This document shows, piece after piece, positions 24,787 through 59,501 of a DNA stretch of 64,000 nucleotides. A program made the translations under genes and the position numbers. The notes beneath the pieces were generated by a model. That model ran no database searches. It was not told the origin of the DNA and saw nothing but the letters and a program-made list of their open reading frames with translations. Positions within the stretch are counted from its first letter, which is position 1; every line of letters starts with the position of its first letter. This DNA comes from a virus. The stretch lies in IMG/VR virus record IMGVR_UViG_3300012971_000002, positions 1-64,000 of that record. One strand, given 5' to 3'.

Positions 24787-24815
24787 ATTATCGCGTATTA
24801 AACACCTGTGTTGAA
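24787..24815 (-). promoter_or_regulatory. candidate sigma70-like promoter for 24760<-24101 genes
   Basis: Minus strand TTCAAC-N17-GATAAT, then a leader with SD; abuts the AGTACTTCCGTACT element. Confidence 0.4.
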
Positions 24816-24829
24816 TAGTACGGAAGTAC
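24814..24829. promoter_or_regulatory. operator-like 16-mer AATAGTACGGAAGTAC (copy 1 of 2)
   Basis: Identical 16-mer at 55571-55586; 21 of 22 nt identical with flanks; both in promoter regions. Confidence 0.45.
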
Positions 24830-26079: not shown

Positions 26080-26289
26080 TTATGCTTTCTCCTGAAGTGC
26101 TTTTTCCCATGTCTCGCGGTGCGCCCAGCGTTTCATGTACTCTTTGCCGGGAACAGCGCAACGAAGCCAAACGATGCTTTTTCCTTCTTGGATCGGCGTG
26201 GCGAAGTAGGGGACGGTGTGGCCGTTATATCCGTCCGGCAGGTTGATGATTCTGTCTTGGGGATTCTTGGCTTTTTGTTGGTGTCTCAT
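26080..26289 (-). CDS. hypothetical protein, predicted leaderless
   Basis: 69-aa ORF; ATG lies 5 nt after the -10 of the promoter cassette at 26295-26336. Confidence 0.55.
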   Translation of the reverse strand: MRHQQKAKNPQDRIINLPDGYNGHTVPYFATPIQEGKSIVWLRCAVPGKEYMKRWAHRETWEKALQEKA

Positions 26290-26294
26290 GTTGT

Positions 26295-26336
26295 AGATTA
26301 CGCCTTAACCGGTACGTTGTCAACCTATTTGTTTAA
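26295..26336 (-). promoter_or_regulatory. promoter cassette P4: TTAAACA-N6-TTGACA-N17-TAATCT-N5-ATG
   Basis: Read on minus strand; TAA stop of upstream gene is embedded in TTAAACA; one of four aligned copies. Confidence 0.6.
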
Positions 26337-26701
26337 CTTTCTTTTGGGGTGAAGTCGCTCCGGACGGTGGCCAGTTGGGATCCCAGATCCAAGATGTAGA
26401 TCTCCGCGACACCGTTGGAATAGTGTCCACGGATGCCGTAGAAGCCCCATGGCGCGAGATCCGGGCTGGTGGCTACATGGGAGACTTTGGGGATCTTGTA
26501 GTCCCTGATAGCGGTCTCTATGGCCATTGCTTCAGCAATCCCCATCTCTAGGCCATGGTTGGGGACTTCTTGCCATTCCAAGTTCTCGATGGCTTTCACT
26601 ACCATGTCGCGGGATGTGATGACTCCCGGCCATTCGGCCGGATCTACCGGCTTGCCGATGAACTCTTCGCCGGTCTTGGTCCAGTTCTGTTGGGTGGCCA
26701 T
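26333..26701 (-). CDS. hypothetical protein
   Basis: 122 aa from internal ATG (MATQQNW...) that forms a TAATG overlap with the upstream gene; longer track ORF start rejected. Confidence 0.55.
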   Translation of the reverse strand: MATQQNWTKTGEEFIGKPVDPAEWPGVITSRDMVVKAIENLEWQEVPNHGLEMGIAEAMAIETAIRDYKIPKVSHVATSPDLAPWGFYGIRGHYSNGVAEIYILDLGSQLATVRSDFTPKES

Positions 26702-27358: not shown

Positions 27359-27796
27359 CTAGTCAATTCGGCTTTGCGCGTAGATTTTGATTCCCATGAT
27401 CTCGTGGACTACTTTGGCGAAACCGTGCGCCCATGCTTCGTTGCGCGTCATGGACTGTGTTCTCAGTGGGGACCAGATGTGGACACCGCCACCGTACCAG
27501 CTTCCCTTGCGTCCACCGCTTCGGCCGCGGCCGGTTTTTACCAGCCACTTGGCGAAGGCACAGTTGCCGGGATGAACTTCCACCCAGCCGAACCCGCAAA
27601 CGCCGTCCGCGACGTACCATTGTTTTTCGATGGGGGAATTATCATCGGCCATGTTCTGGTGCTGGGAGACAACCATCGGAACACAGACCGCTTCGCGTGC
27701 TGCCTTATTGCCCGCTTCCATGGCAGCGTTGAAGATGTCTAAATAGAGCGCTTCTTTCTTTTCTTGCTTGGTTTGGTATTTCGGTTGGTGTGTCAT
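27359..27796 (-). CDS. hypothetical protein, predicted leaderless
   Basis: 145 aa; conserved-looking core DGVCGFGWVEVHPGNCAFAKWL...QSMTRNEAWAHGFAKV; ATG 5 nt after the -10 of cassette P3. Confidence 0.6.
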   Translation of the reverse strand: MTHQPKYQTKQEKKEALYLDIFNAAMEAGNKAAREAVCVPMVVSQHQNMADDNSPIEKQWYVADGVCGFGWVEVHPGNCAFAKWLVKTGRGRSGGRKGSWYGGGVHIWSPLRTQSMTRNEAWAHGFAKVVHEIMGIKIYAQSRID

Positions 27797-27801
27797 GTTC
27801 T

Positions 27802-27842
27802 AGTTTACATGAAACCAGAACGTTGTCAACCCCTATGTTTAA
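27802..27842 (-). promoter_or_regulatory. promoter cassette P3: TTAAACA-N6-TTGACA-N16-TAAACT-N5-ATG
   Basis: Minus strand; TAA stop of upstream gene embedded in TTAAACA. Confidence 0.6.
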
Positions 27843-28099
27843 TAGCGGGTTGCCTTCGTATAATCTTCGCTTGGCACCAGCCACGCTTCGGATCCGTCAT
27901 CATGGCGCACGGAAAGCGCCGGAACCTTGAGGGATCCTTCCACCATGCCGGTCTGGAATACCGTTCCCAGTTGGCCGGTCTTGCGGTGGCGCACGCGGTC
28001 ATTCACTTTGATCTTCTCCGAGAGCGTGCGCTTGAAGTCATTCTCGAGACGGGCTTGATTCCCGCCGAAGATCTTCTGAAAGAACATAGATGCGGTCAT
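27839..28099 (-). CDS. hypothetical protein
   Basis: 86 aa from ATG forming an ATGA overlap with the NlpC/P60-like gene stop. Confidence 0.5.
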   Translation of the reverse strand: MTASMFFQKIFGGNQARLENDFKRTLSEKIKVNDRVRHRKTGQLGTVFQTGMVEGSLKVPALSVRHDDGSEAWLVPSEDYTKATRY

Positions 28100-28626: not shown

Positions 28627-28747
28627 GTTTCCCCTTTCAGGTATAAAGTATGCCAACTTCGCCATGCAAGGTTAATAGTACCTTTGCTCTAAAAGTGCTT
28701 AAAAAGTAGGTACGTTCGATTCGCCGGACTTTCGCCAAGGGAGAACC

Positions 28748-30610
28748 ATGAAGATCGGAATTGTGACGAATATCAGCGCGGGGATCGGCTTGGCCACCGA
28801 ATATGGGCTTCTTCGCGATTACCTTGAAAAGCTTGGCCACCAAGTAACCGGCTTCCAGTTCGATGAAGAAGCGCCGGAGAAGCTGGAACCGATAGATCTA
28901 ATGATCTCGCTGGAAACCGTGTGCCGTCATCTGGTGGACATCGCGCCGGTCAATTGGCTGATCCCGAATCCGGAATGGACCAAGCCGCACGATCTGGATC
29001 TGATCGGCAGAGCCTACAATAAGATCCTGTGCAAGACGCGGGAAGGCGAGCGGATCTTCAAGTGTTACTTTCCGGACCGGACGCATTATGTAGGCTTTCT
29101 GGCGCGTGACGTCTTCAATCCACAGATCATCCGGAAACAGCGCTTCCTTCACATTGGCGGCAATTCCTCTTTCCGCGGTACTCAAGAAGTGCTCGATGCG
29201 TGGAAGTGGCGCAAGGATGGCTTCCCGATTGGCGCAGAACTCCTGATCGTCAGCAAGGCATTGCGGGAGCGGCCGGAGATCCCGAACGTGAAGTACTTCG
29301 ATTGGCTACCGGAGAACGAACTCCGTACGCTGCAGAATGAATGCCTGTTCCATATCTACCCGTCCGGAACCGAAGGTTTCGGCCACGCTATCCGTGAAGC
29401 GATGAGCACGAACGCCATGGTGCTGACCACGGCCGCACCGCCGATGGATGAGATCCATAGCGCCAGTAAAGTCCAAGCCCACGGTTGGTCCACCTATAAC
29501 CTTGCGAAAGTCTACGAAGTTTCCGCGCTGGATATTCATGTGGCGTGCAAGGAATTTCTTGCGAATAGTTCGCTGTTCGGTTATGGAATCTTCGGGGATT
29601 CACGCGAAGAGTTTTTGCGCGGCAATGAGTTCTTCCGGACCGCTTTCGCGGAACATCTCGAAGACTTCGTGCCGCGCTCCATGCGGATGGCTATCGCTTC
29701 CCGGCAAGGAAAGATGCGGATCTCATTCTTGGGGAATTTCCTTGCGGCCGAAAGCACGGAGAACATGATCCGTTGGGCGCTCGAGCAAGCGCTCGATCAC
29801 AGCGTGGATCTCCTGCAGGAGAACGAAGCCACACTCCGGAAGATAGATCTATCGTGTCGGAACTCGGATCTCTTTCTCTGGGTACGAACTCCCGGCTGGC
29901 TCAAAGTAGAAGACCGGGAAATGTTGGCGTGGCTTGCGGATCGTGGCTACCGGACCGCGAGCATCCATCTGGACAAGTTCTGGGGAATCCCTGAACGGGA
30001 AGCGCTGATCGGCAAGATCCCATTCTGGAAGACGAACTTTGTCTTTACCGCGGACGGTTCACGCGACGAAGACTTCGAAAAAGCCGGTGTCAATCATCAT
30101 TGGATGCAACCGGCTGTCAGCGAAGTCTACGTCCATCCCGGCACACCGCGAGATCACTACCGGTGCGATGTGGGATTCGTAGGCGCAAAGGATTACCACA
30201 GCGAGTATCCCTTCCGGCGTCAGATGGTGGAATTTCTCGAACGGACGTATGGCAACCGCTTCAAGCACATCACCGGGATCCGCGGCCACGAACTGAACGA
30301 TGTCTATGCGAGCATGAAGATCGTGGTGGGTGATTGCATTTTTGCCGGAACGCCGCGGTATTGGTCAGACCGCGTGCCGGAAACAATCGGCCGTCACGGC
30401 TTTCTTCTTCACCCGGAAGTACAGGGCTTGGATCTCCCGGTAGCCACTTACCAGCCGCAAGATCTCAAGTCACTCAAGGAACAGATTGATCTGTGGCTGT
30501 TCAATGAGGGACCGCGGAAAGAAGTGATAAAACAAGGTGTGGAACAGATCCGGCGCGATGATACTTGGACCGTGCGAATGCGCCAGATCTTGGAGATTGT
30601 CACGGCATGA
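28748..30610 (+). CDS. two-domain glycosyltransferase (GT4-like plus CgeB-like C-terminal domain)
   Basis: 620 aa; FHIYPSGTEGFGHAIREAMSTNAMVLTT matches the GT1/GT4 E-x-F-G...EAM motif; C-terminal half resembles Glyco_trans_1_2/CgeB-type; AAGGGAGAA SD. Confidence 0.75.
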   Translation: MKIGIVTNISAGIGLATEYGLLRDYLEKLGHQVTGFQFDEEAPEKLEPIDLMISLETVCRHLVDIAPVNWLIPNPEWTKPHDLDLIGRAYNKILCKTREGERIFKCYFPDRTHYVGFLARDVFNPQIIRKQRFLHIGGNSSFRGTQEVLDAWKWRKDGFPIGAELLIVSKALRERPEIPNVKYFDWLPENELRTLQNECLFHIYPSGTEGFGHAIREAMSTNAMVLTTAAPPMDEIHSASKVQAHGWSTYNLAKVYEVSALDIHVACKEFLANSSLFGYGIFGDSREEFLRGNEFFRTAFAEHLEDFVPRSMRMAIASRQGKMRISFLGNFLAAESTENMIRWALEQALDHSVDLLQENEATLRKIDLSCRNSDLFLWVRTPGWLKVEDREMLAWLADRGYRTASIHLDKFWGIPEREALIGKIPFWKTNFVFTADGSRDEDFEKAGVNHHWMQPAVSEVYVHPGTPRDHYRCDVGFVGAKDYHSEYPFRRQMVEFLERTYGNRFKHITGIRGHELNDVYASMKIVVGDCIFAGTPRYWSDRVPETIGRHGFLLHPEVQGLDLPVATYQPQDLKSLKEQIDLWLFNEGPRKEVIKQGVEQIRRDDTWTVRMRQILEIVTA

Positions 30611-31479
30611 TTCCTGTTCTCTGGCACCACGCGGATAGTTTTTGGGATTGTGCAATGCCGCGGTACATTCTGGATTACGCGACGGAATGTGACCATCAAA
30701 TCCTCAAGCCGGAAGGCTACAACCCGATTGGCCGGATCGGCGTGATCGTGATTCCCGGCCGTCATTCATGTGGCGACTATGAAGTGCTGAACCGTGTGGC
30801 CAGTCTTTACAGCAAAGTAGTCTGGATTATCATTGGCGACGAAGAAGGGATCTTCCACTCCGATCAGTTGCAACATCCGAACCAGCGGCTCTGGTGGTTC
30901 ATGCCACCGATCAATCCCAAGCAAAAAGTGGATGTTCCGGCCATCAACGGCTGGACCACGAAAGCGCTCGATCTGATCTATGAACAGAAGAAGCGGCACC
31001 TTCCGCGTAAGTGGGATTGGTCTTTCTACGGACAGGTGACACACAGCCGTCGCGTGCAATGCGTAGATGCGCTGCAGAGTATTCCGAACGGGGACATCGT
31101 TGTGACGCCGGGATTCTCGCAAGGCGTGCCGCAAGAACAGTACTTTGAAACCATGGTGCAATCGAAGTTTGTTCCTTGTCCGGCCGGTCCGTGTACGGTG
31201 GATTCGTTCCGGTTCGCGGAAGCGCTTGAAGCCGGTTGTATTCCCATCGCAGACAACCGCACCCAGCACGAAAGCTATCCACCGGGATACTGGGAATATG
31301 TTCTCGGAAACAAGTTCTTTCCGTTCTGGGTAATCAACGATTGGGCCAAGTTGCCGGACGTGATCGAGACGTTGCTTCCGAAGTGGAAGGATGTCTCGGA
31401 AGAGTGTATGCACTTCTGGAAGTCCTACAAGAAGTCACTCGTGAGGCAAATGCGAAAGGATCTCGAATGCGAGATATAA
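30607..31479 (+). CDS. exostosin/GT47-like glycosyltransferase
   Basis: 290 aa, ATGA overlap; FVPCPAGPCTVDSFRFAEALEAGCIPI matches the exostosin-family C-terminal motif. Confidence 0.6.
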   Translation: MIPVLWHHADSFWDCAMPRYILDYATECDHQILKPEGYNPIGRIGVIVIPGRHSCGDYEVLNRVASLYSKVVWIIIGDEEGIFHSDQLQHPNQRLWWFMPPINPKQKVDVPAINGWTTKALDLIYEQKKRHLPRKWDWSFYGQVTHSRRVQCVDALQSIPNGDIVVTPGFSQGVPQEQYFETMVQSKFVPCPAGPCTVDSFRFAEALEAGCIPIADNRTQHESYPPGYWEYVLGNKFFPFWVINDWAKLPDVIETLLPKWKDVSEECMHFWKSYKKSLVRQMRKDLECEI

Positions 31480-32183
31480 CCGTGGTGATTCCCACTTCAC
31501 CGATCCCGGCGCATCCTTCCACGGAGATTATCGAGCGCACGATCCAATCCATCCGGAAACATTTACCGGATTCTGAGATCGTCATCATGTGTGATGGCGT
31601 GCGGCCGGAAGTGGAACATCGCAGCAAGCAATACCGGGAATACCTTGTCTACCTGATCGAACAGGTGAATTTCAGGTATGCCAACGTTTTAATCTGTCCC
31701 TTTGCGAAGCACCTACAGCAAGCCGGAATGATGAAGGCAACTATGGCGTGGTGCCACACGCCGCTTGTTCTTTTCTGTGAGCACGACGCCACGATTGATG
31801 ACAAGCCGATTGATTGGCTGGGAATCCGCTGGATGCTGGCTTCCGAAAAAGCCAATACAGTTCGCTTCTACTGGCACGAAACCTTGCACCCGGAGCACCA
31901 GCATCTCTTCGGGGAACGCGAAGGGGACTTCGTTAAAACGATCCAGTGGTCTTCGTGGCCGCACGTCTCCCGCACGGACTTCTATCGGCGCATTCTGGAC
32001 GAATACTTTTCCGGCGATGATTGCAAGATGATCGAAACCGTGATGTACTCGCCGGTCTTGGAATTGCCGTGGGAAAAGTTCAAGACATGGATTTACGCTC
32101 CCGAGCCGGACGCTATCCGCTTCCACCATCTGGATGCACGGCGAGATCCGGTAACAGGCGAAAAAGATCCGGGGAGTTGGTAA
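31467..32183 (+). CDS. GT-A fold glycosyltransferase (GT2-like)
   Basis: 238 aa; ITVVIPTSPIPAHPS...VIMCDG N-terminus; 13-nt overlap with upstream gene. Confidence 0.55.
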   Translation: MRDITVVIPTSPIPAHPSTEIIERTIQSIRKHLPDSEIVIMCDGVRPEVEHRSKQYREYLVYLIEQVNFRYANVLICPFAKHLQQAGMMKATMAWCHTPLVLFCEHDATIDDKPIDWLGIRWMLASEKANTVRFYWHETLHPEHQHLFGEREGDFVKTIQWSSWPHVSRTDFYRRILDEYFSGDDCKMIETVMYSPVLELPWEKFKTWIYAPEPDAIRFHHLDARRDPVTGEKDPGSW

Positions 32184-32938
32184 TGGCTGAATCGCAAGAA
32201 GATGTGATCGGCAAGATGCAAGTCTGGGCATGGAACGAGATTGCTCGAGTTCATCCGGAGATCAAACCGCACTTTTTCAGTTTCGATGATCCGTACATGA
32301 TAAGTGAGATCGTAGCGCGTGACACTTACCGCTTCCGTGCCAAGCCCGGAGATCGTGTCATGGACATCGGCGCGAACGTAGGAGTCTTCACAACGTTGTG
32401 TGCGGTGAACGGCGCACAAGTAACCGCCTACGAACCACACCCGGAAGCTTATCTCATCTTGCTGGACACGATTCAGCGGAGCGGCATCCAAGACCGCGTG
32501 ATCCCGAAACAAATGGCTGTGTGGACGCATTCCGGCCAGTGTGCATACCATCCGGGCAAGACTCCGGCGCATAGCCATCCCGGCCAGACATGGGATTCCT
32601 ACAATGGCGCTGTGGTGTGGCCGGACAATTCCGGACCGGCGAACATGGCATGTGTTTCCTTCGAAGACGCCATCGGACTCGAAGACTGGGATTGCGTAAA
32701 GATGGACATCGAAGGCGCGGAGTTTGAACTTCTCCTGACCGCACCGCTTGAAGCGTTACTACGGATCAAATACCTGACACTGGAACTCCACAACGGCTGG
32801 GCTGAGAAACCGGCTTATGATGCGCTGATCGAACTATTGGGCAAGTTCTTCAAGCTTGAAGGAACTCCGGACGGGGATCCCCGCTTCGCCGGAGAAGACC
32901 GTTTCATTTCCGTCTATGCAACACGAAAGGCACTTTGA
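32183..32938 (+). CDS. FkbM-family SAM-dependent methyltransferase
   Basis: 251 aa, TAATG overlap; VMDIGANVGVFT...AYEPHPEAY...KMDIEGAEFELL. Confidence 0.75.
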   Translation: MAESQEDVIGKMQVWAWNEIARVHPEIKPHFFSFDDPYMISEIVARDTYRFRAKPGDRVMDIGANVGVFTTLCAVNGAQVTAYEPHPEAYLILLDTIQRSGIQDRVIPKQMAVWTHSGQCAYHPGKTPAHSHPGQTWDSYNGAVVWPDNSGPANMACVSFEDAIGLEDWDCVKMDIEGAEFELLLTAPLEALLRIKYLTLELHNGWAEKPAYDALIELLGKFFKLEGTPDGDPRFAGEDRFISVYATRKAL

Positions 32939-33774
32939 TGACTACCTTGTTGATGACCGGCGCAACCGGCTTTGCTGGCCGCGCTGTAGTGAATGAAGTT
33001 CTCACTCGAACCGATTGGAATATCGCCTCATTTCAAAGAGAGTGTGGAAAATTCGAATCGGAAAGAGTGGTGGAAATTCCTTGGGACTTCAAACATCCGA
33101 TGCTGGAAGCGTATATGCGTGTTCCTGTTGATGCTGATATGTTTTTCCTTCATCTTGGTGCCGATGTCCATGCTCTGCGTTCCTTGAAGGATCCGGCTTC
33201 TTTTGTAGAAACCAACGTAATGGGGACCGCCAACGTGCTCGATCTTGCTCGCCGGATGGATGTGGATCTCTTTGCTTACGTTTCCACCGGCGAAGTCTTT
33301 GGTGGCCGCGACGATGGCTACAGCAACGAAGAGGATCCGCACCGGCCGTCCAATCCTTACGCTGCAACCAAAGCCGCGGGCGAACTCCTGACGTACAGCT
33401 ATCACCGCGCTTTTGATCTACCGGCAATCATCGTGCGGACACTAAACATCTTCAGTATGGATCAAAAGGATCCGTCCAAGTTCGTGCCGATTGTCCGCAA
33501 AGCGCTCGAGACCGGCGAGACGATGAAGCTTCATGCGAAAGATGGAAGACCGGGAGTCCGTCAGTGGCTCCATGTCACCGCTTTCGCCAATCAACTAGTG
33601 GATCTCCTGAAAACTGCAACCATCGGCAAGTCATACCATCTCTACGGGGAAGAACTGAACAACCTGCAGATGGCCCAGCGTGTGGCCACGGAACTGGGCA
33701 AGGAACTGAAGTACGAATTTATCCGGATGCCGAAGACGCACGAATACCGTTATGCGATGGCGAGAAACCGATGA
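32935..33774 (+). CDS. NAD-dependent sugar epimerase/reductase (extended SDR)
   Basis: 279 aa, ATGA overlap; MTGATGFAGRAV Rossmann motif and YAATKAAGE (YxxxK). Confidence 0.8.
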   Translation: MMTTLLMTGATGFAGRAVVNEVLTRTDWNIASFQRECGKFESERVVEIPWDFKHPMLEAYMRVPVDADMFFLHLGADVHALRSLKDPASFVETNVMGTANVLDLARRMDVDLFAYVSTGEVFGGRDDGYSNEEDPHRPSNPYAATKAAGELLTYSYHRAFDLPAIIVRTLNIFSMDQKDPSKFVPIVRKALETGETMKLHAKDGRPGVRQWLHVTAFANQLVDLLKTATIGKSYHLYGEELNNLQMAQRVATELGKELKYEFIRMPKTHEYRYAMARNR

Positions 33775-34724
33775 CAACTTGCCTTGTGACCGGTGGGGCT
33801 GGATTCCTTGGCTCGCACCTTGTGAAGCATCTTCTCGAGCACACGGATTGGAACATCAAGGTGTGGGACAGCTTCACCTATGCCGCGATGGGTGGCGAAC
33901 GGCTGAAAGGCTTGGCGAAAAATAGCCGCTTCGACCTGACTGTGATAGACGTGAACCATGCGGATTATCAGGAGCTGGATCCGTCCATCAAATACATCGC
34001 GCATCTTGCCGCGGAAACTCACGTCACGCGAAGTATCGAGAAGGCTAGACCGTTTCTCTATTCCAATATCTTTGGAACTTATTCCATGCTCGAGTTCGCC
34101 CGTCAGTTGCCGAACCTGAAAAAGTTCCTGTACTTCTCCACTGATGAAGTTTTTGGCTCGTCAGATCTAACCGAAGAGTATTTCGGGGAATGGTCTCGTT
34201 ACCGGAGCGGGAATCCCTATGCGGCCACCAAAGCGGCCGGGGAAGAACTCGCATTGGCATGGTGCAATACTTTCGGTGTGCCGGTAGTGATCTCGCACTG
34301 TTCGAACCTGTTCGGGGAAGGCCAGCATCCAGAGAAGTTCATTCCACGGATAATCTACGAGATCTCTCGAGATCGGGAAGTGGTCATTCACGCCAAACCA
34401 AACGGCGAGCCGGGGCGACGGATGTACGTCTACGTTGGCGACGTCGCGGCCGCAATTAAGTTACTTCTCGAGCAAGCGGAGATCCATTGCAAGTACAACA
34501 TCCCCGGCGTTACTTTTTCCAATCTTGAAATTGCGGAGAAGATCAGCGGGATGATTGGGAAAAAATTAAAGTACTCACTGGCTTATCCGCACAAAGAACG
34601 GCCGGGATGGGACTTCTCCTATAACATTTCCGGTGATGCCATCAAAGAATATGGCTGGGAGCGCGGGGACTTCGATACACAGCTTCAGCAAACGATCCAG
34701 AGTGAGTTTGTATGCCGCGGGTAA
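33771..34724 (+). CDS. NDP-sugar 4,6-dehydratase-like SDR (RfbB-like)
   Basis: 317 aa, ATGA overlap; VTGGAGFLGSHL, STDEVFG, YAATKAAGE, NLFGEGQHPEKFIPR. Confidence 0.75.
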   Translation: MTTCLVTGGAGFLGSHLVKHLLEHTDWNIKVWDSFTYAAMGGERLKGLAKNSRFDLTVIDVNHADYQELDPSIKYIAHLAAETHVTRSIEKARPFLYSNIFGTYSMLEFARQLPNLKKFLYFSTDEVFGSSDLTEEYFGEWSRYRSGNPYAATKAAGEELALAWCNTFGVPVVISHCSNLFGEGQHPEKFIPRIIYEISRDREVVIHAKPNGEPGRRMYVYVGDVAAAIKLLLEQAEIHCKYNIPGVTFSNLEIAEKISGMIGKKLKYSLAYPHKERPGWDFSYNISGDAIKEYGWERGDFDTQLQQTIQSEFVCRG

Positions 34725-35359
34725 ACACGAAGAGTGATTCCTACGAAGCACTATGCTGGGACGTCATCACCAACGTACACCGCTACATTCCGAAGCCAAG
34801 AGATCGTGTACTGGATCTCGGCGCTCACTTCGGCGTGTTCTCGCTGTACTGTGCGGCACGCGGTTGCTATGTCAAAGCTGTGGAACCGAATCCCGAAGTG
34901 CTGGTGGAACTTGTTCACTCCGCGGCCGTGGCGAACGACATCGGAAATGGAAAGATCGAGATCGTCAACGCGGCCGTTGCGGATAAATACAGAAAGGGTT
35001 TCCTTTGGCACTTTCCGGAAACCAGTGCAATCAATACCATCATGGGACGTTCCGGATCCGATGGCTGTATAGAAGTCCAATGCTTCTCGCTGGCCGATCT
35101 CTTGGGTGAAAGCTATTGGGATTGTGTCAAGGTGGACATTGAAGGTGCGGAATACGAAACATTTATGGCCGCGTCAGAAGCAACCTTGGAGCGGATCGGC
35201 TACCTGACCATGGAAATTCACACAGATCTCATTCCGCAAGGCCAATGCCAAGAACTCGTGAAGAAGCTGGAACAAAACTTCGATTCAACTTCCAAGCTTT
35301 ACCTGAAATGGAATGGCGAACAGACTGACATCGTGACAGCCATCTACTGTTGGAGATGA
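34712..35359 (+). CDS. FkbM-family SAM-dependent methyltransferase
   Basis: 215 aa; VLDLGAHFGVFSLYCAARG...AVEPNPEV...KVDIEGAEYE. Confidence 0.75.
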   Translation: MPRVNTKSDSYEALCWDVITNVHRYIPKPRDRVLDLGAHFGVFSLYCAARGCYVKAVEPNPEVLVELVHSAAVANDIGNGKIEIVNAAVADKYRKGFLWHFPETSAINTIMGRSGSDGCIEVQCFSLADLLGESYWDCVKVDIEGAEYETFMAASEATLERIGYLTMEIHTDLIPQGQCQELVKKLEQNFDSTSKLYLKWNGEQTDIVTAIYCWR

Positions 35360-40538: not shown

Positions 40539-40745
40539 GTGGGCAAAGAACAAGGTACAGTGAAGTGGTTTAACAGTTCCAAAGGGTACGGCTTCATTCA
40601 GCGCAAAGGCAACGCCGATATTTTCGTGCATTACTCCGGTATCATCACCGAAGGCTATAAGACGTTGAATGAAGGGGATCACGTTCTCTTCGAAGTGAAA
40701 GACACGCCAAAGGGTTTGCAAGCAATCAACGTAGAACCGGCTTAA
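40539..40745 (+). CDS. csp: cold-shock protein (CspA family)
   Basis: 68 aa, GTG start; GTVKWFNSSKGYGFI (RNP1) and DIFVHYS (RNP2). Confidence 0.9.
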   Translation: MGKEQGTVKWFNSSKGYGFIQRKGNADIFVHYSGIITEGYKTLNEGDHVLFEVKDTPKGLQAINVEPA

Positions 40746-46994: not shown

Positions 46995-47412
46995 TTTTCA
47001 CCTTCGCTGATTCATTCAACGCTGTGAGAGCCTTGTTTATCATTTCTTGAGTGAAACCGATTCGAATGAGTTCGCCACAGTAACCGATATAGTCCCCACC
47101 GTAGATCTTTCGTTCCATCGGTGTTTTCATTGCGTGAATCCGCATTGACACACAGTATAAATTCTCGAGAATATGGGGATCCGCTTTCGGTATGAACCGG
47201 CGCACGAAACGTTCTGGTAACAAATGGTCCACCGCACGCTTCCAAAGCCATTTCTTCCGGCCGTCCGGATTGACCACGACATAAAGCCCAAGGCAATCGC
47301 CGGAGATCTCACACTTTTTACCGGCTCGCTTGAAGACTTTATCCCGCTGTTCGATCCAGTGCTTGCGCCGCGGATACTTCCGTCCCTGAGTGCGTGTTTT
47401 CGATCTGAGCAT
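46975..47412 (-). CDS. HNH endonuclease-like protein
   Basis: 145 aa; KKCEISGD...AVDHLLPERF...NLYCVSMRIHAMKT fits a C-x-x-C/D-H...N...H-x-x-K HNH layout. Confidence 0.5.
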   Translation of the reverse strand: MLRSKTRTQGRKYPRRKHWIEQRDKVFKRAGKKCEISGDCLGLYVVVNPDGRKKWLWKRAVDHLLPERFVRRFIPKADPHILENLYCVSMRIHAMKTPMERKIYGGDYIGYCGELIRIGFTQEMINKALTALNESAKVKNDPRTR

Positions 47413-47770
47413 GTCGTTTCACCAAGTGAATTATCGTAGTGTGGTGCTTATTCAAGAGCGCTCCAATACGCGGATAGGTATATCCGAACTGTCGCGCCAT
47501 GACAGAAACTTTTTGCCGCGCTTCCACTAGTCGCGGCGTATTGCCACCGCCGATGATCTGCGCGGTAGAGATCTTCATCTCTTCGGCTACACTTTCAAGG
47601 ATGTTCCACAAGCGCCGGTCCTGATCTTTCCGGATGTCAATGGCGTTGATAGATAGTTCGCGCCGGATTGCTGACATACAATCCGAACAGACATTCGAGA
47701 ACAGCTTCATTACCACCGACATCGGCACTACAATGTGATCTAATTCGTTTTTTCCACTCATATTCACCAA
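47339..47770 (-). CDS. DnaA domain IV-like helix-turn-helix protein
   Basis: 143 aa; RLVEARQKVSVMARQFGYTYPRIGALLNKHHTTIIH parallels DnaA C-terminal R...aRq.amyl...s...IG..f..dHsTV. Confidence 0.6.
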   Translation of the reverse strand: MVNMSGKNELDHIVVPMSVVMKLFSNVCSDCMSAIRRELSINAIDIRKDQDRRLWNILESVAEEMKISTAQIIGGGNTPRLVEARQKVSVMARQFGYTYPRIGALLNKHHTTIIHLVKRHAQIENTHSGTEVSAAQALDRTAG

Positions 47771-54031: not shown

Positions 54032-54214
54032 TCACAGTCTCCCTATCAGTTCGTTGTTTTCAAAGATCTCGATGAAGGAATAGCCGGTGCCTTTGGGATC
54101 GTGGTTTGGCCGGTATTCCCAGCCATCATTCCCGGCGTTCAGTTCGGCCGCTAGGGCTTCAGCCTTTTCCCTTGTCAGGAGTCTTGCCGGTTCGTTGATG
54201 ATCTTCTTTATCAC
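54032..54214 (-). CDS. hypothetical protein, predicted leaderless (GTG start)
   Basis: 60-aa ORF; GTG lies 5 nt after the -10 of cassette P2. Confidence 0.5.
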   Translation of the reverse strand: MIKKIINEPARLLTREKAEALAAELNAGNDGWEYRPNHDPKGTGYSFIEIFENNELIGRL

Positions 54215-54219
54215 AAGAA

Positions 54220-54261
54220 AGAATACTCCTAAACTTGGCGCTTGTCAACACCTATGTTTAA
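54220..54261 (-). promoter_or_regulatory. promoter cassette P2: TTAAACA-N6-TTGACA-N17-TATTCT-N5-GTG
   Basis: Minus strand; TAA stop of upstream gene embedded in TTAAACA in the same register as P3 and P4. Confidence 0.6.
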
Positions 54262-55292
54262 CCCCAAGCCACTGTGGCCAGTAGCTTTTTCTCTTGTGCC
54301 GCTTGTTTCTTCGCCAGTTTCGCTTTCGCTATTTCTTCTTCGGTCTGAGCCAGTGTGGCGCGTTTGAAGAAGCCGAACTTGGGATCATCCTTGCTCGCCG
54401 TAATCGTTGCGGTGAAGAAGACTTTATCGCCGCGGTCCACGTTGGCGAACCGGTTGCCGTAGATCTTGCTGCCATTCTCGAGTTTGATGAGAGCCTTGGT
54501 GTCAACTCCATCATCGTGGTAGTGGTAGGCTGGCCGATCCACTTCTTTGAGCGCCAGCACTTCGCCGGTCACTGTCACGCGGCCGGTAGGGACTGGGCCA
54601 GCCGCATCGGCTTCCGCTTTGCGCTGGGCTTCGATGATCGGCCGGTCTTGGATCTTTTGCAGAAGCTTGGCTACGAACTCCGCTTGTTTATCGCTGACGT
54701 TGCCATACTTCACTAGCTTGCCTACGATGTCGCGGATCGTGCGTTCTTCGAACCGGTCCCAATCGTGGAAGGCTTCAGCCTGTCCGCAATCGCATGTTCC
54801 CGGCATATAACCGGTGTAATCGTTGTAGACCGCTTTGCATCCTTCCGCGTGCTTCGGATATTCGGCCGTGTAGAGTTCCCAAGCGCCGATCAATCCCTTG
54901 TCAGCGAGAAGCGCGATGGCTTTCCGCTTGCCAGCTACCGCTTCGCGGGCATCGGCCACTTGCTTCCGGAACAGGTTCATTCCGTCCGCATCGTAGGAGA
55001 TCCCCATCTTCTGGGCGCAATTGACGCCCACCACGATGTATTCGTTGCTTTTCGCGTGATGGTAGAGAACCAAGTAGATGGCTTGGACGTTGCCACAGAT
55101 CCCGCAAGATCCGTTGCTGTAGTGACGAAGCTGGCCACCGGTGCGAGCCATGTGGGCTTTGGCTAGTTCGCGCTGGTGGAGCATGAAGTGGCAATCCCCG
55201 ATCCCGGTGATGTTCATCGTCCAGATGGCCACTTCCTGATAGTCTTCAGGGATGATGGCGCTGGGGCGGTGGATGTCGGTGCGTTCGTTCAC
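54258..55292 (-). CDS. hypothetical protein with Cys cluster
   Basis: 344 aa from GTG 55292 (GTGA overlap with upstream stop); NGSCGICGN...C...CDCG; no family recognised. Confidence 0.6.
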   Translation of the reverse strand: MNERTDIHRPSAIIPEDYQEVAIWTMNITGIGDCHFMLHQRELAKAHMARTGGQLRHYSNGSCGICGNVQAIYLVLYHHAKSNEYIVVGVNCAQKMGISYDADGMNLFRKQVADAREAVAGKRKAIALLADKGLIGAWELYTAEYPKHAEGCKAVYNDYTGYMPGTCDCGQAEAFHDWDRFEERTIRDIVGKLVKYGNVSDKQAEFVAKLLQKIQDRPIIEAQRKAEADAAGPVPTGRVTVTGEVLALKEVDRPAYHYHDDGVDTKALIKLENGSKIYGNRFANVDRGDKVFFTATITASKDDPKFGFFKRATLAQTEEEIAKAKLAKKQAAQEKKLLATVAWG

Positions 55293-55507
55293 AGTGCCAC
55301 TCCCAGAACGTATGTCTCCATACTGTAGAAGCCTTGGGGATTGTCGAAGTACTGACGGATGACTTGCTTGCCGAAGACTTCCTCTACCAGCCACTCACCC
55401 TTCCAGACTTCATTCAGGTTGGCCAGCGGTTTGACGGTTCCCAGAAAGTTATGGACGGCGTTGAATCCCTTGGCGGCGGCTACTTTCTTTGCATTCTCAA
55501 GAGTCAT
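55289..55507 (-). CDS. hypothetical protein, first gene of leftward operon
   Basis: 72-aa ORF with AGGAGA SD downstream of cassette P1. Confidence 0.55.
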   Translation of the reverse strand: MTLENAKKVAAAKGFNAVHNFLGTVKPLANLNEVWKGEWLVEEVFGKQVIRQYFDNPQGFYSMETYVLGVAL

Positions 55508-55530
55508 TTGGTATCTCCTGATTACATTTC

Positions 55531-55572
55531 ATTATGGGCTTAAAGCCGTCCGTTGTCAACATATATGTTTAA
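55531..55572 (-). promoter_or_regulatory. promoter cassette P1: TTAAACA-N6-TTGACA-N17-CATAAT
   Basis: Minus strand, in the divergent control region; the N6 plus flanks form the perfect palindrome AACATATATGTT. Confidence 0.6.
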
Positions 55573-55586
55573 TAGTACGGAAGTAC
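55571..55586. promoter_or_regulatory. operator-like 16-mer AATAGTACGGAAGTAC (copy 2 of 2)
   Basis: Lies between the divergent -35 elements; identical to 24814-24829. Confidence 0.45.
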
Positions 55587-55588
55587 CA

Positions 55589-55631
55589 GTCAACCGGCAG
55601 GTTGACAACTGGCATAGCAAAGGCGTACAGT
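55589..55631 (+). promoter_or_regulatory. candidate rightward promoter with overlapping inverted repeat
   Basis: TTGACA (55602-55607)-N18-TACAGT, ATG 7 nt later; GTCAACC-GGCA-GGTTGAC inverted repeat covers the -35. Confidence 0.5.
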
Positions 55632-55638
55632 CCGGACC

Positions 55639-55812
55639 ATGAAACCTATCACTCTGGAAGAAGCTGTAAAGAAGGCCGGTGGCGCTCGCAAGGTAGCGGA
55701 AGCCATCGGTGTATCCGTGCAAGCCGTTTACCGCGTCATCAAAGGGGACTTCCATCCCAGCGATGAACTACTGAAGTACGTCAAACTCAAGCGCGTCTAC
55801 GTTTGGCGATGA
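55639..55812 (+). CDS. Cro/YdaS-like HTH protein (57 aa, below track cutoff)
   Basis: Hand-translated MKPITLEEAVKKAGGARKVAEAIGVSVQAVYRVIKGDFHPSDELLKYVKLKRVYVWR; HTH AEAIGVSVQAVYRV; divergent from leftward operon. Confidence 0.6.
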   Translation: MKPITLEEAVKKAGGARKVAEAIGVSVQAVYRVIKGDFHPSDELLKYVKLKRVYVWR

Positions 55813-55904
55813 GAACTCACTCGCAAGAAGTTGTGTTGCGTGGCTTCAAGATCCTTGCGTGGCTTGTGGGGATCATTCTTTTGATGGCGTGGGCGAACCG
55901 ATGA
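55809..55904 (+). CDS. possible 31-aa membrane micro-protein
   Basis: MRTHSQEVVLRGFKILAWLVGIILLMAWANR; ATGA overlaps at both ends; could be coincidental. Confidence 0.3.
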   Translation: MRTHSQEVVLRGFKILAWLVGIILLMAWANR

Positions 55905-56128: not shown

Positions 56129-56291
56129 AAAAGTTCTTCGGTATATCCGCACACCACTTCCCAAGAAGTGGTCATTCGGCCATCCGCACGCGAGTAGCGT
56201 GGAACTGATCTTGGAATGCGGACATAGTAAGTTTCAAAAAGGTGCGGTGAAGATTCCGATCAAAGCACGGTGCCGGGATTGTCTTATTTAG
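56115..56291 (+). CDS. small hypothetical His/Cys protein (58 aa, below track cutoff)
   Basis: Hand-translated MSPLKKVLRYIRTPLPKKWSFGHPHASSVELILECGHSKFQKGAVKIPIKARCRDCLI; overlaps upstream stop by 14 nt. Confidence 0.4.
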   Translation: MSPLKKVLRYIRTPLPKKWSFGHPHASSVELILECGHSKFQKGAVKIPIKARCRDCLI

Positions 56292-56481
56292 GATTCTTCA
56301 AGCGCCAGTACGCCGCTTGCCTAGAGATCCCGAGTTTCTTGGCCAGCACGTTGGCTTCGCTGACGTGACCAGCCCACCGGCTCTTGGCACCGGCGCGGCC
56401 GTTGCGTTGGTTCTTTCGGCGAGCCAGTTCCCGGCATTGCTTGCATCGCGTTCTCTTGTGGCGTAGACACTTGCGAACCAT
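56284..56481 (-). CDS. small basic HTH protein in antisense orientation to its block
   Basis: 65 aa from internal ATG; C-terminal EANVLAKKLGISRQAAYWRLKN is HTH-like; TTGAAG-N18-TAGATT-N8-ATG upstream. Confidence 0.45.
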   Translation of the reverse strand: MVRKCLRHKRTRCKQCRELARRKNQRNGRAGAKSRWAGHVSEANVLAKKLGISRQAAYWRLKNPK

Positions 56482-56499
56482 GGAAAGGTAATCTAGCAA

Positions 56500-56919
56500 A
56501 TGGGACTCTATAACTTCAAGCAACGCTTCGCGCCATTCATTCTGGACGGCCGGAAACAACACACGATCCGGAAGGATCGGCTCGATGGCCATGTGGACAC
56601 TCCGGGCTTAGATATTTGCCATTGCTTCGTGGGACTCCGCACGAAGAAGTCTATCCTTCTGGGCCGATGGCCATGTCACAAGGTGGACCGGATCATCGTC
56701 CTGAATATGGATCCCAATTCTCCGCTCGTTCCGCGCAACACCGTGATCCGCGTGAACGATGAGAAGCTGACGGAAGACGAATGCGAACGGCTTGCTCGAG
56801 CCGATGGCTTCAAAGACTTCACGGAGTTCGTTTCTTTCTGGCGGGCAGAGCACAAGTTTCCGTTCTCCGGCCACATCATTCACTGGAAGTTTGAGAAAGG
56901 AAAAAATGAGCGAAGCTGA
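56500..56919 (+). CDS. ASCH domain-like protein
   Basis: 139 aa; FKQRFAPFILDGRKQHTIRK N-terminus and size fit the ASCH/PUA-like pattern. Confidence 0.6.
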   Translation: MGLYNFKQRFAPFILDGRKQHTIRKDRLDGHVDTPGLDICHCFVGLRTKKSILLGRWPCHKVDRIIVLNMDPNSPLVPRNTVIRVNDEKLTEDECERLARADGFKDFTEFVSFWRAEHKFPFSGHIIHWKFEKGKNERS

Positions 56920-57373
56920 TCTGGATAAAAGCATCGAGGAATTACCAATCTCTGTCCGAACCTACAATTGCCTGAAAGCTGCAAACTTATTGACGATCCG
57001 AAGCGTTGTGCTGAAGACTCGGAAAGAACTCCGTGAATACAGAAACTTCGGGAGAAAAAGCGTATTGGAATTAGAAGAAGAACTGGCGCGGATCGGCTTG
57101 TGTCTCTCTAAAAAACCAATGCACCGTTTCCATGTCACTACAAACCGCGAAGTTGGGGAACCAATTCTTGAACTGAGAGACAGAGAACAAGAAGCTGGCC
57201 ACACACTTATTGCAGAGTTCTATCCATCGGAAGCGTGGAATGCTCACCACGAGATCTTGAAGTTGGCCGCATCTTTGAATGGCATGGTGATGCCAAATGT
57301 AAGCGTCGCGAACGGAATGCGCTTGGAAGAACTCGAGCGCCGTGTTCATAAATTGGAGAAAATGATTCGATGA
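56906..57373 (+). CDS. RNA polymerase alpha subunit C-terminal domain (alpha-CTD) homologue fused to an unknown helical domain
   Basis: 155 aa; IEELPISVRTYNCLKAANLLTIRSVVLKTRKELREYRNFGRKSVLELEEELARIGLCL aligns by eye with E. coli [57 protein letters not shown]. Confidence 0.8.
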   Translation: MSEADLDKSIEELPISVRTYNCLKAANLLTIRSVVLKTRKELREYRNFGRKSVLELEEELARIGLCLSKKPMHRFHVTTNREVGEPILELRDREQEAGHTLIAEFYPSEAWNAHHEILKLAASLNGMVMPNVSVANGMRLEELERRVHKLEKMIR

Positions 57374-58984: not shown

Positions 58985-59030
58985 TTGACAGACGTAAAGA
59001 CAGCGAATACATTAACAACTGTAAAGACAG
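58985..59030 (+). promoter_or_regulatory. candidate promoter TTGACA-N17-TACATT with two GTAAAGACAG direct repeats
   Basis: Repeats at 58994-59003 (in spacer) and 59021-59030 (abutting the ATG of the RHH gene). Confidence 0.5.
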
Positions 59031-59501
59031 ATGAGCACAACTCTGATAAACCTTCGCGTGCCGGATACGGACGTGAGCGGATGGCGCAAAGAAGCGGATC
59101 TATCAGGTCTAACTCTGTCGGAATGGATCCGTCGCAAGTGTAACGATTCGAAGATTCCGGTTGCCAGCCCGGAAAGTGTAAATGGAAATGGGACGCAAAC
59201 TGATTCGACATCCTTACGGGTACGAAGAGATCCTGATCGTGGATCTCGCGGTGGTACGTCCACACGATCTTCCGCACGAAACAAAAATGCTGCCGGGGAT
59301 TCTGAAGTGGAACGAAATGATGCGCCGAATGGTGGAAATCGAAACGCGAGTCCTTCGGGAAGAGATGGAACGACTAAGACAGTCGCGCCTGAACTGGATC
59401 GGCAGCGGCATGTTCAGGATTCCAATGCGAATCGTGGCCGAGCCTGTCCGCACGGCATAAAGAAAGGCTATCGCTGTACGTTGTGTGGAGGGATTGTTTG
59501 A
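59031..59501 (+). CDS. ribbon-helix-helix (CopG/Arc-like) protein with low-complexity middle and C-terminal Cys knuckle
   Basis: 156 aa; INLRVPDTDVSGWRKEADLSGLTLSEWIRRK fits RHH; ends CPHGIKKGYRCTLCGG; next gene starts 1 nt after its stop; competing ORF 59182-59460 in another frame. Confidence 0.5.
   Translation: MSTTLINLRVPDTDVSGWRKEADLSGLTLSEWIRRKCNDSKIPVASPESVNGNGTQTDSTSLRVRRDPDRGSRGGTSTRSSARNKNAAGDSEVERNDAPNGGNRNASPSGRDGTTKTVAPELDRQRHVQDSNANRGRACPHGIKKGYRCTLCGGIV

Follow-up and report, generated by a model that had tools for sequence, protein, structure and literature searches.

The DNA considered here is a 64,000-nt stretch (the window) covering positions 1 to 64,000 of the IMG/VR virus record IMGVR_UViG_3300012971_000002, that is, 64 kb out of a 67.1-kb metagenomic contig which represents the genome (about 67 kb) of an uncultured soil phage. 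Its minus strand carries four copies of a compact cassette in which the heptamer TTAAACA stands 6 nt ahead of the hexamer TTGACA. The favoured reading, to which a probability of about 55% is given, is that these cassettes are sigma-70-type promoters with leaderless starts, and that TTAAACA forms half of an operator for a dimeric phage protein. The evidence comes from the strict geometry of the cassettes, from a dyad symmetry that extends to two further sites in the window, and from related phages that carry a different palindrome in the place of the heptamer.

Layout of the proposed promoters and predicted leaderless starts

All four copies are read on the minus strand. The first (26287..26336) consists of TTAAACA (26336-26330), a -35 hexamer (26323-26318), a 17-nt spacer, the -10 hexamer TAATCT (26300-26295), ACAAC and ATG 26289, and the second (27794..27842) of TTAAACA (27842-27836), a -35 hexamer (27829-27824), a 16-nt spacer, the -10 hexamer TAAACT (27807-27802), AGAAC and ATG 27796. 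In the third (54212..54261), the order is TTAAACA (54261-54255), TAGGTG (54254-54249), TTGACA (54248-54243), a 17-nt spacer (54242-54226), TATTCT (54225-54220), TTCTT (54219-54215) and GTG (54214-54212). The fourth (55531..55572) has TTAAACA (55572-55566), TATATG (55565-55560), TTGACA (55559-55554), a 17-nt spacer and CATAAT (55536-55531), and continues into a leader of GAA, an ATG-TAA pair (55527-55522), AGGAG (55519-55515) and ATG 55507. A preliminary description of this DNA had given the strings and positions of the last two copies, all of which proved correct on re-reading, and had stated that four copies share TTAAACA exactly 6 nt before TTGACAA; four exact minus-strand matches, with 5' ends at 26336, 27842, 54261 and 55572, bear this out.

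The number of copies is far above expectation, since a search for TTAAACA-N6-TTGACA with one mismatch allowed gave four matches in the window against 0.04 expected, and none of 100 dinucleotide-preserving shuffles reached four. The second element is longer than the hexamer, and extends in all four copies to GTTGACAA. When the cassettes were aligned on the -35 element, from 30 nt upstream of the hexamer to 22 nt past its first base, TTAAACA plus GTTGACAA(C) proved invariant at 15 of 16 positions, compared to 4 of 37 elsewhere in the aligned region. Such block-wise invariance suggests that the blocks are kept selectively and are not mere remnants of recent duplication.

The -35 element matches TTGACA at six of six positions in every copy, the spacers measure 17, 16, 17 and 17 nt, and the -10 hexamers (TAATCT, TAAACT, TATTCT and CATAAT) all have A at position 2 and T at position 6. 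The copy at 55572 agrees with the promoter consensus at 11 of 12 positions, and all four point in the same direction as the genes downstream of them. The earlier view that the sites look like sigma-70-type promoters is thus backed by -35, spacer and -10 in each copy, and we infer that they serve as promoters for the housekeeping sigma-70-type RNA polymerase of the host.

In three of the four copies the TAA within TTAAACA is also the stop codon of the upstream open reading frame (ORF), at 26335-26333 (ORF 26333..26701), 27841-27839 (ORF 27839..28099) and 54260-54258 (ORF 54258..55292). The start codon of the next gene (ATG 26289, ATG 27796 and GTG 54214) follows 5 nt past the -10 hexamer in the same three copies, so that the promoter fills the entire intergenic gap of 42-43 nt. 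The coordinates agree with the earlier report of an embedded stop followed by 5 nt to the start at 54261, as at 26295 and 27802. Counted from the first T of the -10 hexamer, the start codon lies 11 nt downstream at 26289, 27796 and 54214, 13 nt downstream at a divergent gene described below (ATG 55639), and 12 nt downstream in related phages, while bacterial leaderless genes have been found to carry a TAnnnT signature about 12 nt upstream of the start (PMC3160421). Gene starts in the window were taken from a local codon-usage gene caller. Most of the other genes have a GGAG-type Shine-Dalgarno sequence 5-8 nt upstream; there is none at 27796, and only a distant AAGG at 26289 and 55639. Among the 4,333 ATG or GTG codons of the window, just eight are preceded by a promoter match that scores 9 of 12 or better and ends 4-9 nt before the codon, and four of these eight are the called gene starts 26289, 27796, 54214 and 55639. 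The ORFs starting at 26289 and 27796 are supported only by their coding potential and by a weak PHROG match. With stop codon, promoter and start codon placed in this way, and the -10 hexamer so near the start, leaderless mRNAs (beginning with AUG, AUG and GUG) are predicted at the three compact cassettes, and the genes at 26289 and 27796, for want of a usable Shine-Dalgarno sequence, would depend for translation chiefly on leaderless transcripts of their own and not on read-through RNA.

The gene behind the 54261 copy is an ORF of 60 amino acids (aa) on the minus strand (54032..54214), for which GTG 54214 is the only possible start, because an in-frame TGA within TTGACA closes the frame and the ORF has no other start codon. 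An exhaustive HMMER search returned 68 representative homologues at E <= 1e-3, mostly 57-65 aa long and aligned nearly end to end, and a product at 54032..54214 is also present in public gene calls. Judged by this conservation, the ORF is evidently a real gene, and the sole start together with homologues of matching length upholds the earlier proposal that its GTG is a start of the leaderless type. The same source had called a leaderless GTG unusual; this is so in E. coli, where a 5'-terminal GTG initiates poorly, but in mycobacteria such starts are established and GTG is equal to ATG (PMC4633059).

The copy at 55572 stands at the head of a leftward block of replication and recombination genes and is leadered, with a Shine-Dalgarno sequence. 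The ATG-TAA pair that had been pointed out 3 nt past its -10 hexamer is present, but is probably incidental, given that transcription beginning at the usual 6-8 nt would not include the whole pair.

Some observations concern the predicted transcripts themselves. The cassettes as a set showed no Rfam family, no tRNA and no common RNA fold, and a reading of them as RNA elements was rejected. RNA of the 27842 copy (27797-27850, minus strand) is predicted to form two strong hairpins (z = -5.05), a fold without counterpart in the other cassettes; the second hairpin, GUUCUGGUUUCAUGUAAACUAGAAC, stops directly before ATG 27796, and would mask the start in read-through RNA while being absent from a leaderless transcript. 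A nucleotide motif, ACACCAAC, follows the leaderless ATG in differing reading frames (ATGAGACACCAAC, ATGACACACCAAC, ATGGACACCAACAC and ATGGAGACACCAA) at 26277-26289 and 27784-27796 on the minus strand and, in the related phage locus L150, near 1160 and 2780. It possibly acts as a CA-rich downstream element by which leaderless translation is aided.

TTAAACA as one arm of a dyad

The heptamer and the -35 hexamer are related by symmetry. The pattern T.AAC-N6-GTT.A has six sites in the window against 0.7 expected, comprising the four cassettes and two others, at 24798 and 55589, and all six fit an 18-bp inverted repeat, KTMAACM-N4-KGTTKAM, with arms of 7 nt on either side of a 4-nt gap. This longer pattern, with its six occurrences here, was met neither in 100 Markov simulations nor in about 490 kb of DNA from other phages. 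TTAAACA forms the distal arm in the cassettes, and (T/G)GTTGAC, the proximal one, consists of the -35 element and the invariant G preceding it. Agreement between the arms over the six sites is 6, 4, 4, 5, 5 and 7 of 7. The AACA-N4-TGTT symmetry noticed earlier in two copies was found at 54247 and 55558, and additionally at 24801.

The site with perfect arms belongs to a divergent promoter on the plus strand (55589..55641). Its dyad, GTCAACC-GGCA-GGTTGAC (55589-55606), holds the -35 element TTGACA (55602-55607) in the right arm, and is followed by an 18-nt spacer, the -10 hexamer TACAGT (55626-55631), 7 nt and ATG 55639, with no Shine-Dalgarno sequence. The region between the leftward and rightward promoters is mirror-symmetric: dyad A of the 55572 cassette (55555-55572), the palindrome GTACGGAAGTAC (55575-55586) and dyad B (55589-55606) follow each other at centre-to-centre distances of 17 nt, which puts the palindrome exactly halfway between dyads A and B. 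A 16-mer of this region, AATAGTACGGAAGTAC, recurs at 24814-24829.

That recurrence falls within a fifth cassette of other arrangement (24787..24829, minus strand), made up of a GTAC palindrome (24829-24818), TA, TTCAAC (24815-24810) as the -35 element, a 17-nt spacer and GATAAT (24792-24787), with a leader containing AGGAG and then ATG 24760 downstream. The dyad TTAAACA-CCTG-TGTTGAA (24798-24815 on the plus strand, arms agreeing at 6 of 7 positions) spans the -35 element and the spacer. Here the heptamer is inverted relative to the genes, inside a promoter-like site that had been flagged independently by a promoter scan, and it adjoins the only other GTAC-N4-GTAC palindrome in the window.

ATG 55639 opens a gene on the plus strand (55639..55812) for a 57-aa protein resembling Cro and the helix-turn-helix (HTH) family HTH_3, with a terminator-like hairpin (55850-55874) behind it. 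Its product is the nearest candidate reader of the dyads, and had zero homologues among 5.8 billion proteins. In the public gene-call table for the two contigs that carry this DNA the gene is absent, and a 394-nt 'intergenic' gap stands there; it was probably missed owing to the missing Shine-Dalgarno sequence. A second candidate regulator is the product of a 102-aa ORF on the minus strand (56284..56592), which lies inside the rightward block, where the start of an ASCH-domain gene (56500..56919) overlaps it. Its C-terminus, VLAKKLGISRQAAYWRLK, is HTH-like, and the ORF is present in public gene calls and has no Pfam match. No CI-type repressor was found. A 344-aa conserved protein encoded between the two right-hand cassettes (54258..55292, minus strand) was also considered. 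It is Cys-rich, with CxxC-type motifs, and its predicted structure ends in a C-terminal beta-barrel weakly like oligonucleotide/oligosaccharide-binding (OB) folds (IF1, RPA and SSB; best E = 1e-3); as this weak resemblance was all that the structure showed, the protein was set aside as a regulator.

The 344-aa protein has hundreds of homologues in soil metagenomes and served as the anchor for finding relatives. Six of the loci found in this way (L149-L152, L156 and L164, at 51-62% identity) share a unit that reads taGTAC-N4-GTAC-(t/c)a-TTGnnn-N17-(-10)-N6-ATG, in which a GTAC palindrome occupies the place of TTAAACA-N4 in the window. The distance from the -10 hexamer to the ATG of an ORF of at least 40 codons is exactly 6 nt in 11 of the 14 distinct forward cassettes of relatives, and the palindrome contains the stop codon of the upstream ORF in 11 of 15, as the TAG of taGTAC in nine and as a TAA in the N4 in two, with the proviso that some of the loci are closely related and have cassettes in common, so that these counts overstate the number of independent cases. 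In L150, the 344-aa protein has its own gene behind a leaderless-type GTAC cassette. By this comparison, the layout of stop codon, upstream element, promoter and start is typical of the clade. Other loci combine TTGACA with private elements of different kinds, such as dyads within the spacer (L146 and L144), direct repeats flanking the -35 element (L143) or a conserved spacer (L001), and the candidate regulators of the window have no homologues in the relative loci. Promoter elements that differ between related phages, together with private regulators, point to operator-like behaviour. One site in the window, at 28640-28682 on the minus strand, reads GGTAC-TA-TTAACC-N17-CATACT and has the same 'GTAC-TA-(-35)' register as the relatives. 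It sits upstream of an NlpC/P60-like gene with a probable start at ATG 28626 and the Shine-Dalgarno sequence AGGGGA, and is likely, to judge from its position and make-up, to be the head promoter of the left-hand block.

A dimeric regulator had been offered in the preliminary description as an alternative to a contact with the polymerase, and it is this alternative that fits more of the data: the six dyads, the perfect palindrome, the inverted copy at 24798 and the other palindrome in the relatives. A phage-specific operator half-site is accordingly favoured over a contact of the polymerase alpha subunit as the likelier role of TTAAACA, and a dyad operator would also explain the invariant C at -43 and the invariant G at -36. 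In the scheme proposed, the host sigma-70-type polymerase would begin transcription with the initial nucleotide of the start codon, both in three cassettes and at the rightward promoter, and the 55572 copy would drive the leftward operon through its short leader and Shine-Dalgarno sequence. A phage dimer would bind the dyad, centred near -39, and cover the -35 element, so that the leftward promoters would be shut off or timed together. A repressor or a temporal switch seems likelier than an activator, because a perfect TTGACA lies inside the site, and to call the effect repression is a guess. The best candidate for the regulator would be the divergent 57-aa Cro-like protein, whose own promoter has the perfect dyad; the GTCAACC palindrome there would give a different affinity.

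Alternative readings

Several points weigh against the favoured reading. The sites were already known when the degenerate dyad pattern was drawn up, and the arms agree at just 4-5 of 7 positions in the four TTAAACA cassettes, an agreement partly imposed by the -35 hexamer. In shuffled sequence, generic promoter-like matches are at least as common as in the window, for which reason the case rests on the combination of features, and a consensus match alone proves little. At 54261, AGGAG lies in the spacer 11 nt before the GTG, making conventional translation of read-through transcripts possible, and the 60-aa gene might be translated in this manner from transcripts begun at 55572. The heptamer also resembles an upstream (UP) element, for which the consensus is AAAAAARNR at -46 to -38 (proximal subsite) and NNAWWWWWTTTTN at -59 to -47 (distal subsite) (PMC4132738). 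The four cassettes match the proximal subsite at 7, 6, 6 and 6 of 8 positions, and at least 6 is reached by 1.35% of the 9-mers of the window, the four copies not being independent of each other; moreover, at -40 the A is invariant and at -38 all four have a purine, which suits this consensus better than it suits a free N4.

These last similarities belong to the best-placed of the competing explanations, which nevertheless appears unlikely: that TTAAACA is a proximal UP subsite, an A-rich minor groove at about -46 to -41 contacted by the host alpha subunit's C-terminal domain (alpha-CTD) or by a phage homologue of it, which strengthens the promoters and leaves the dyad incidental. The preliminary description had advanced this role, placing the heptamer at about -49 to -43; with the -35 hexamer counted as -35 to -30 it occupies -48 to -42, or -47 to -41 if counted from the first base of the start codon. 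The phage does carry a free-standing alpha-CTD homologue of 155 aa on the plus strand (56906..57373; PF03118, E = 3e-18), which might instead read the A-rich heptamer. Its alignment to residues 255-316 of E. coli alpha is free of gaps, and it keeps the DNA-binding motifs VR(S/T)YNCLK and GRKS, which we take to be R265, N268, C269, G296, K298 and S299 in E. coli numbering. Its structural model is confident for residues ~8-65, the C-terminal ~90 residues being of low confidence and without homologue, and a search gave only five distant matches; an annotated alpha-CTD-containing gene is found in the cultured Bacillus phage Goe8. As none of the sampled relatives has the homologue, its presence beside TTAAACA amounts to a single co-occurrence. 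The claim is supported in part, by the proximal match. The distal subsite is poor, with matches at 6, 4, 3 and 4 of 10 positions, the A/T fraction over -59 to -38 is 0.50-0.77, and upstream of -48 two of the four copies are not A/T-rich. UP elements are degenerate A/T tracts, whereas here none of the seven positions varies, neither the C, which interrupts the A-tract, nor the TT, which the proximal consensus does not call for. A contact with alpha would furthermore not explain why the heptamer mirrors the -35 arm, nor would it explain the inverted TTAAACA at 24798, the perfect rightward palindrome, the GTAC palindrome of the relatives or the G at -36. A partial UP function, perhaps coexisting with an operator, may be present, judging from the proximal match.

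A specific form of such coexistence is speculative and seems improbable: the early operons of this clade of uncultured soil phages would be assembled from exchangeable units of about 45 nt, each running from stop codon through operator and promoter to start codon and giving leaderless mRNAs, and here the A-rich element would have taken the place of the GTAC palindrome of the clade and would double as an operator half-site and as a docking site for the phage alpha-CTD paralogue. If true, it would be a previously undescribed route by which a phage mimics or competes for the upstream promoter contact of the host polymerase. It is just as doubtful that a single promoter was recently duplicated and that TTAAACA has no function apart from its TAA stop. 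This would agree with the finding that all four copies are in one genome, with no independent lineage found to have the motif, and that TAA serves as a stop codon in three of the four. Yet the invariance is limited to two blocks, an invariant heptamer (7 of 7) has a probability of about 2e-7 at the background rate, a stop codon explains at most three of its seven bases, and the copy at 55572 has no upstream gene to terminate.

More improbable still is that the sites are not promoters at all and serve only for binding, as stoperator-like roadblocks or as replication or packaging sites, with TTGACA contained in them by chance. Like stoperators (PMC9283540), three sites adjoin stop codons and all are oriented with transcription, and the lack of enrichment of generic promoter-like matches over shuffled sequence would also be in keeping with this. 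Against it are the -10 hexamers of the A2 and T6 type at 16-17 nt, the start codons 5 nt further on, two of them (26289 and 27796) without a Shine-Dalgarno sequence, and the same geometry in 11 of 14 cassettes of relatives. There are only six sites, not dozens, and they are dyad-symmetric and not asymmetric; these two features, symmetry and number, led to the rejection of the stoperator reading. The least credible possibility, that a sigma factor of the extracytoplasmic function (ECF) type or of the phage reads TTAAAC as an 'AAC' -35 element and the CGT after TTGACAA as a -10 element, has in its favour that ECF -35 elements typically contain AAC and that CG(T/G) directly follows TTGACAA in three of four copies, and was rejected on spacing, since AAC and CG are 14 nt apart, 2-3 nt short of the distance in ECF promoters, while the 54261 copy has GCGC at that point, GTTGACAA would be an unexplained invariant 'spacer', and the protein scans brought up no sigma-factor domain.

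Phage context and known systems

The phage-type genes include a terminase on the contig just past the window end, an endolysin, a minor-head-protein-like domain, RecT, a DnaA_C-type HTH protein, DUF5131 and an ATPase of the HerA/DUF87 type. Scans of 57 proteins against Pfam, and of another nine large ORFs against PHROGs only, gave no integrase, sigma factor or phage RNA polymerase. A 47.9-kb contig of a second sample carries, at 100% identity, a 19.3-kb stretch in which both right-hand cassettes lie. A megablast search of GenBank phages with the region gave zero matches, and IMG/VR gave no relative exceeding 48% protein identity; the nearest relative, at 79% protein identity, comes from Joint Genome Institute (JGI) sample 3300047160. 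No prophage relatives came to light in a genome collection scanned both with a single protein and with a family alignment, and the sole hint of a host is one homologue within a metagenome-assembled genome of Candidatus Acidiferrales. In Acidobacteria, about 13% of genes are predicted to be leaderless (PMC3160421). The exact pattern TTAAACA-N5-GTTGACAA occurs in at least 119 stretches of IMG/VR, which were treated as chance matches: no DNA in common with the window was found among the matches listed, which have one match per stretch except for two in L084, and one of these stretches, L060, has a single weak protein match to the window (27% identity, to an epimerase/dehydratase ORF).

The cassettes are distributed over two leftward blocks, made up of small early genes and replication genes, those at 27842 and 26336 in a block running from 28.6 to 24.1 kb, and that at 55572 at the head of a block from 55.5 to about 40 kb, with the 54261 copy 1.3 kb further in. 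A sugar-modification module on the plus strand (28748-35359) encodes two FkbM-type methyltransferases and two NAD-dependent epimerase/dehydratases besides a GT47-like protein and a GT1-like glycosyltransferase of 620 aa, and may glycosylate the virion or a host glycan. A gene for a cold-shock-domain protein is found at 40539..40745. A gap of 344 nt without genes (46995-47338), possibly an origin or control region, contains a plus-strand TTGACA-N16-GAGAAT and adjoins a DnaA_C-type HTH gene (47339..47761). A further promoter-like sequence, TTGACA-N17-TACATT at 58985-59033 on the plus strand, lacks the heptamer; its spacer holds GTAAAGACAG (58994-59003), which is directly repeated at 59021-59030, abutting ATG 59031 of a NikA-like ORF.

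If confirmed, the layout would provide an annotation rule for abundant uncultured soil phages, namely a dyad, TTGACA-N17-TAnnnT and a start codon 5-6 nt further on. Standard gene callers miss such starts, the 57-aa HTH gene being an example. The cassettes further suggest efficient translation of leaderless AUG and GUG mRNAs in the host, a property that limits which hosts are likely, and form a natural series of promoters distinguished solely by an exchangeable upstream operator, accompanied by a phage alpha-CTD paralogue.

Many of these features have counterparts in known phage systems. Cluster O mycobacteriophages (promoters PL1-PL6 and PR1-PR3; PMC4351075) likewise place several strong promoters of the housekeeping (SigA-like) type in long leftward blocks, and have a divergent pair predicted to be leaderless, with +1 at the first base of the start codon, as well as a separate palindromic repeat scattered in the genome and genes for glycosyl- and methyltransferases, as here. 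There is no detectable sequence relationship, and their 17-bp repeats are not tied to promoters, whereas in the window the dyad is fused to the -35 element and the upstream stop codon lies inside it. Lambda PRM and OR2, with the leaderless cI mRNA, are similar in that a divergent control region separates a Cro-type gene from a leftward operon, a dyad operator abuts or overlaps the -35 element and a small HTH regulator has a leaderless transcript, and the alpha-CTD has been implicated at that same promoter (PMC1874639, PMC10491246). The window differs in having six dispersed sites in place of a tripartite operator, and in using the leaderless layout at ordinary small operon genes too.

At the Mu promoter Pm, a short inverted repeat upstream of or replacing the -35 element is read by a small phage dimer, Mor, at a site centred at -43.5, with the alpha-CTD bound beside Mor at a proximal UP subsite (PMC4390567); the GTAC palindrome of the relatives is centred at about -43.5 by our own count. 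The Mu dyad replaces a poor -35 element and the promoter is activator-dependent, while in the window a perfect TTGACA lies inside the dyad, which favours occlusion over activation. UP elements of the rrnB P1 type have an A-rich proximal subsite in the same place, which the cassettes match at 6-7 of 8 positions (PMC4132738), but the cassettes have an exact heptamer with a C, no distal subsite and a mirror relation to the -35 arm. The stoperators of Cluster A mycobacteriophages, to which a repressor binds at places spread over the phage genome, are, like the present sites, repeated, phage-specific, located in short gaps near stop codons and oriented with transcription (PMC9283540). They are asymmetric, numerous, bound by a monomer and mostly without a promoter, and also terminate elongation, in contrast to the few dyads here, each of which lies within a promoter with a -10 hexamer and a gene start. 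The parts of the arrangement, a sigma-70 promoter, a leaderless mRNA and an operator overlapping the -35 element, are all well known, and their combination in this phage is a refinement of these themes, not a discovery.

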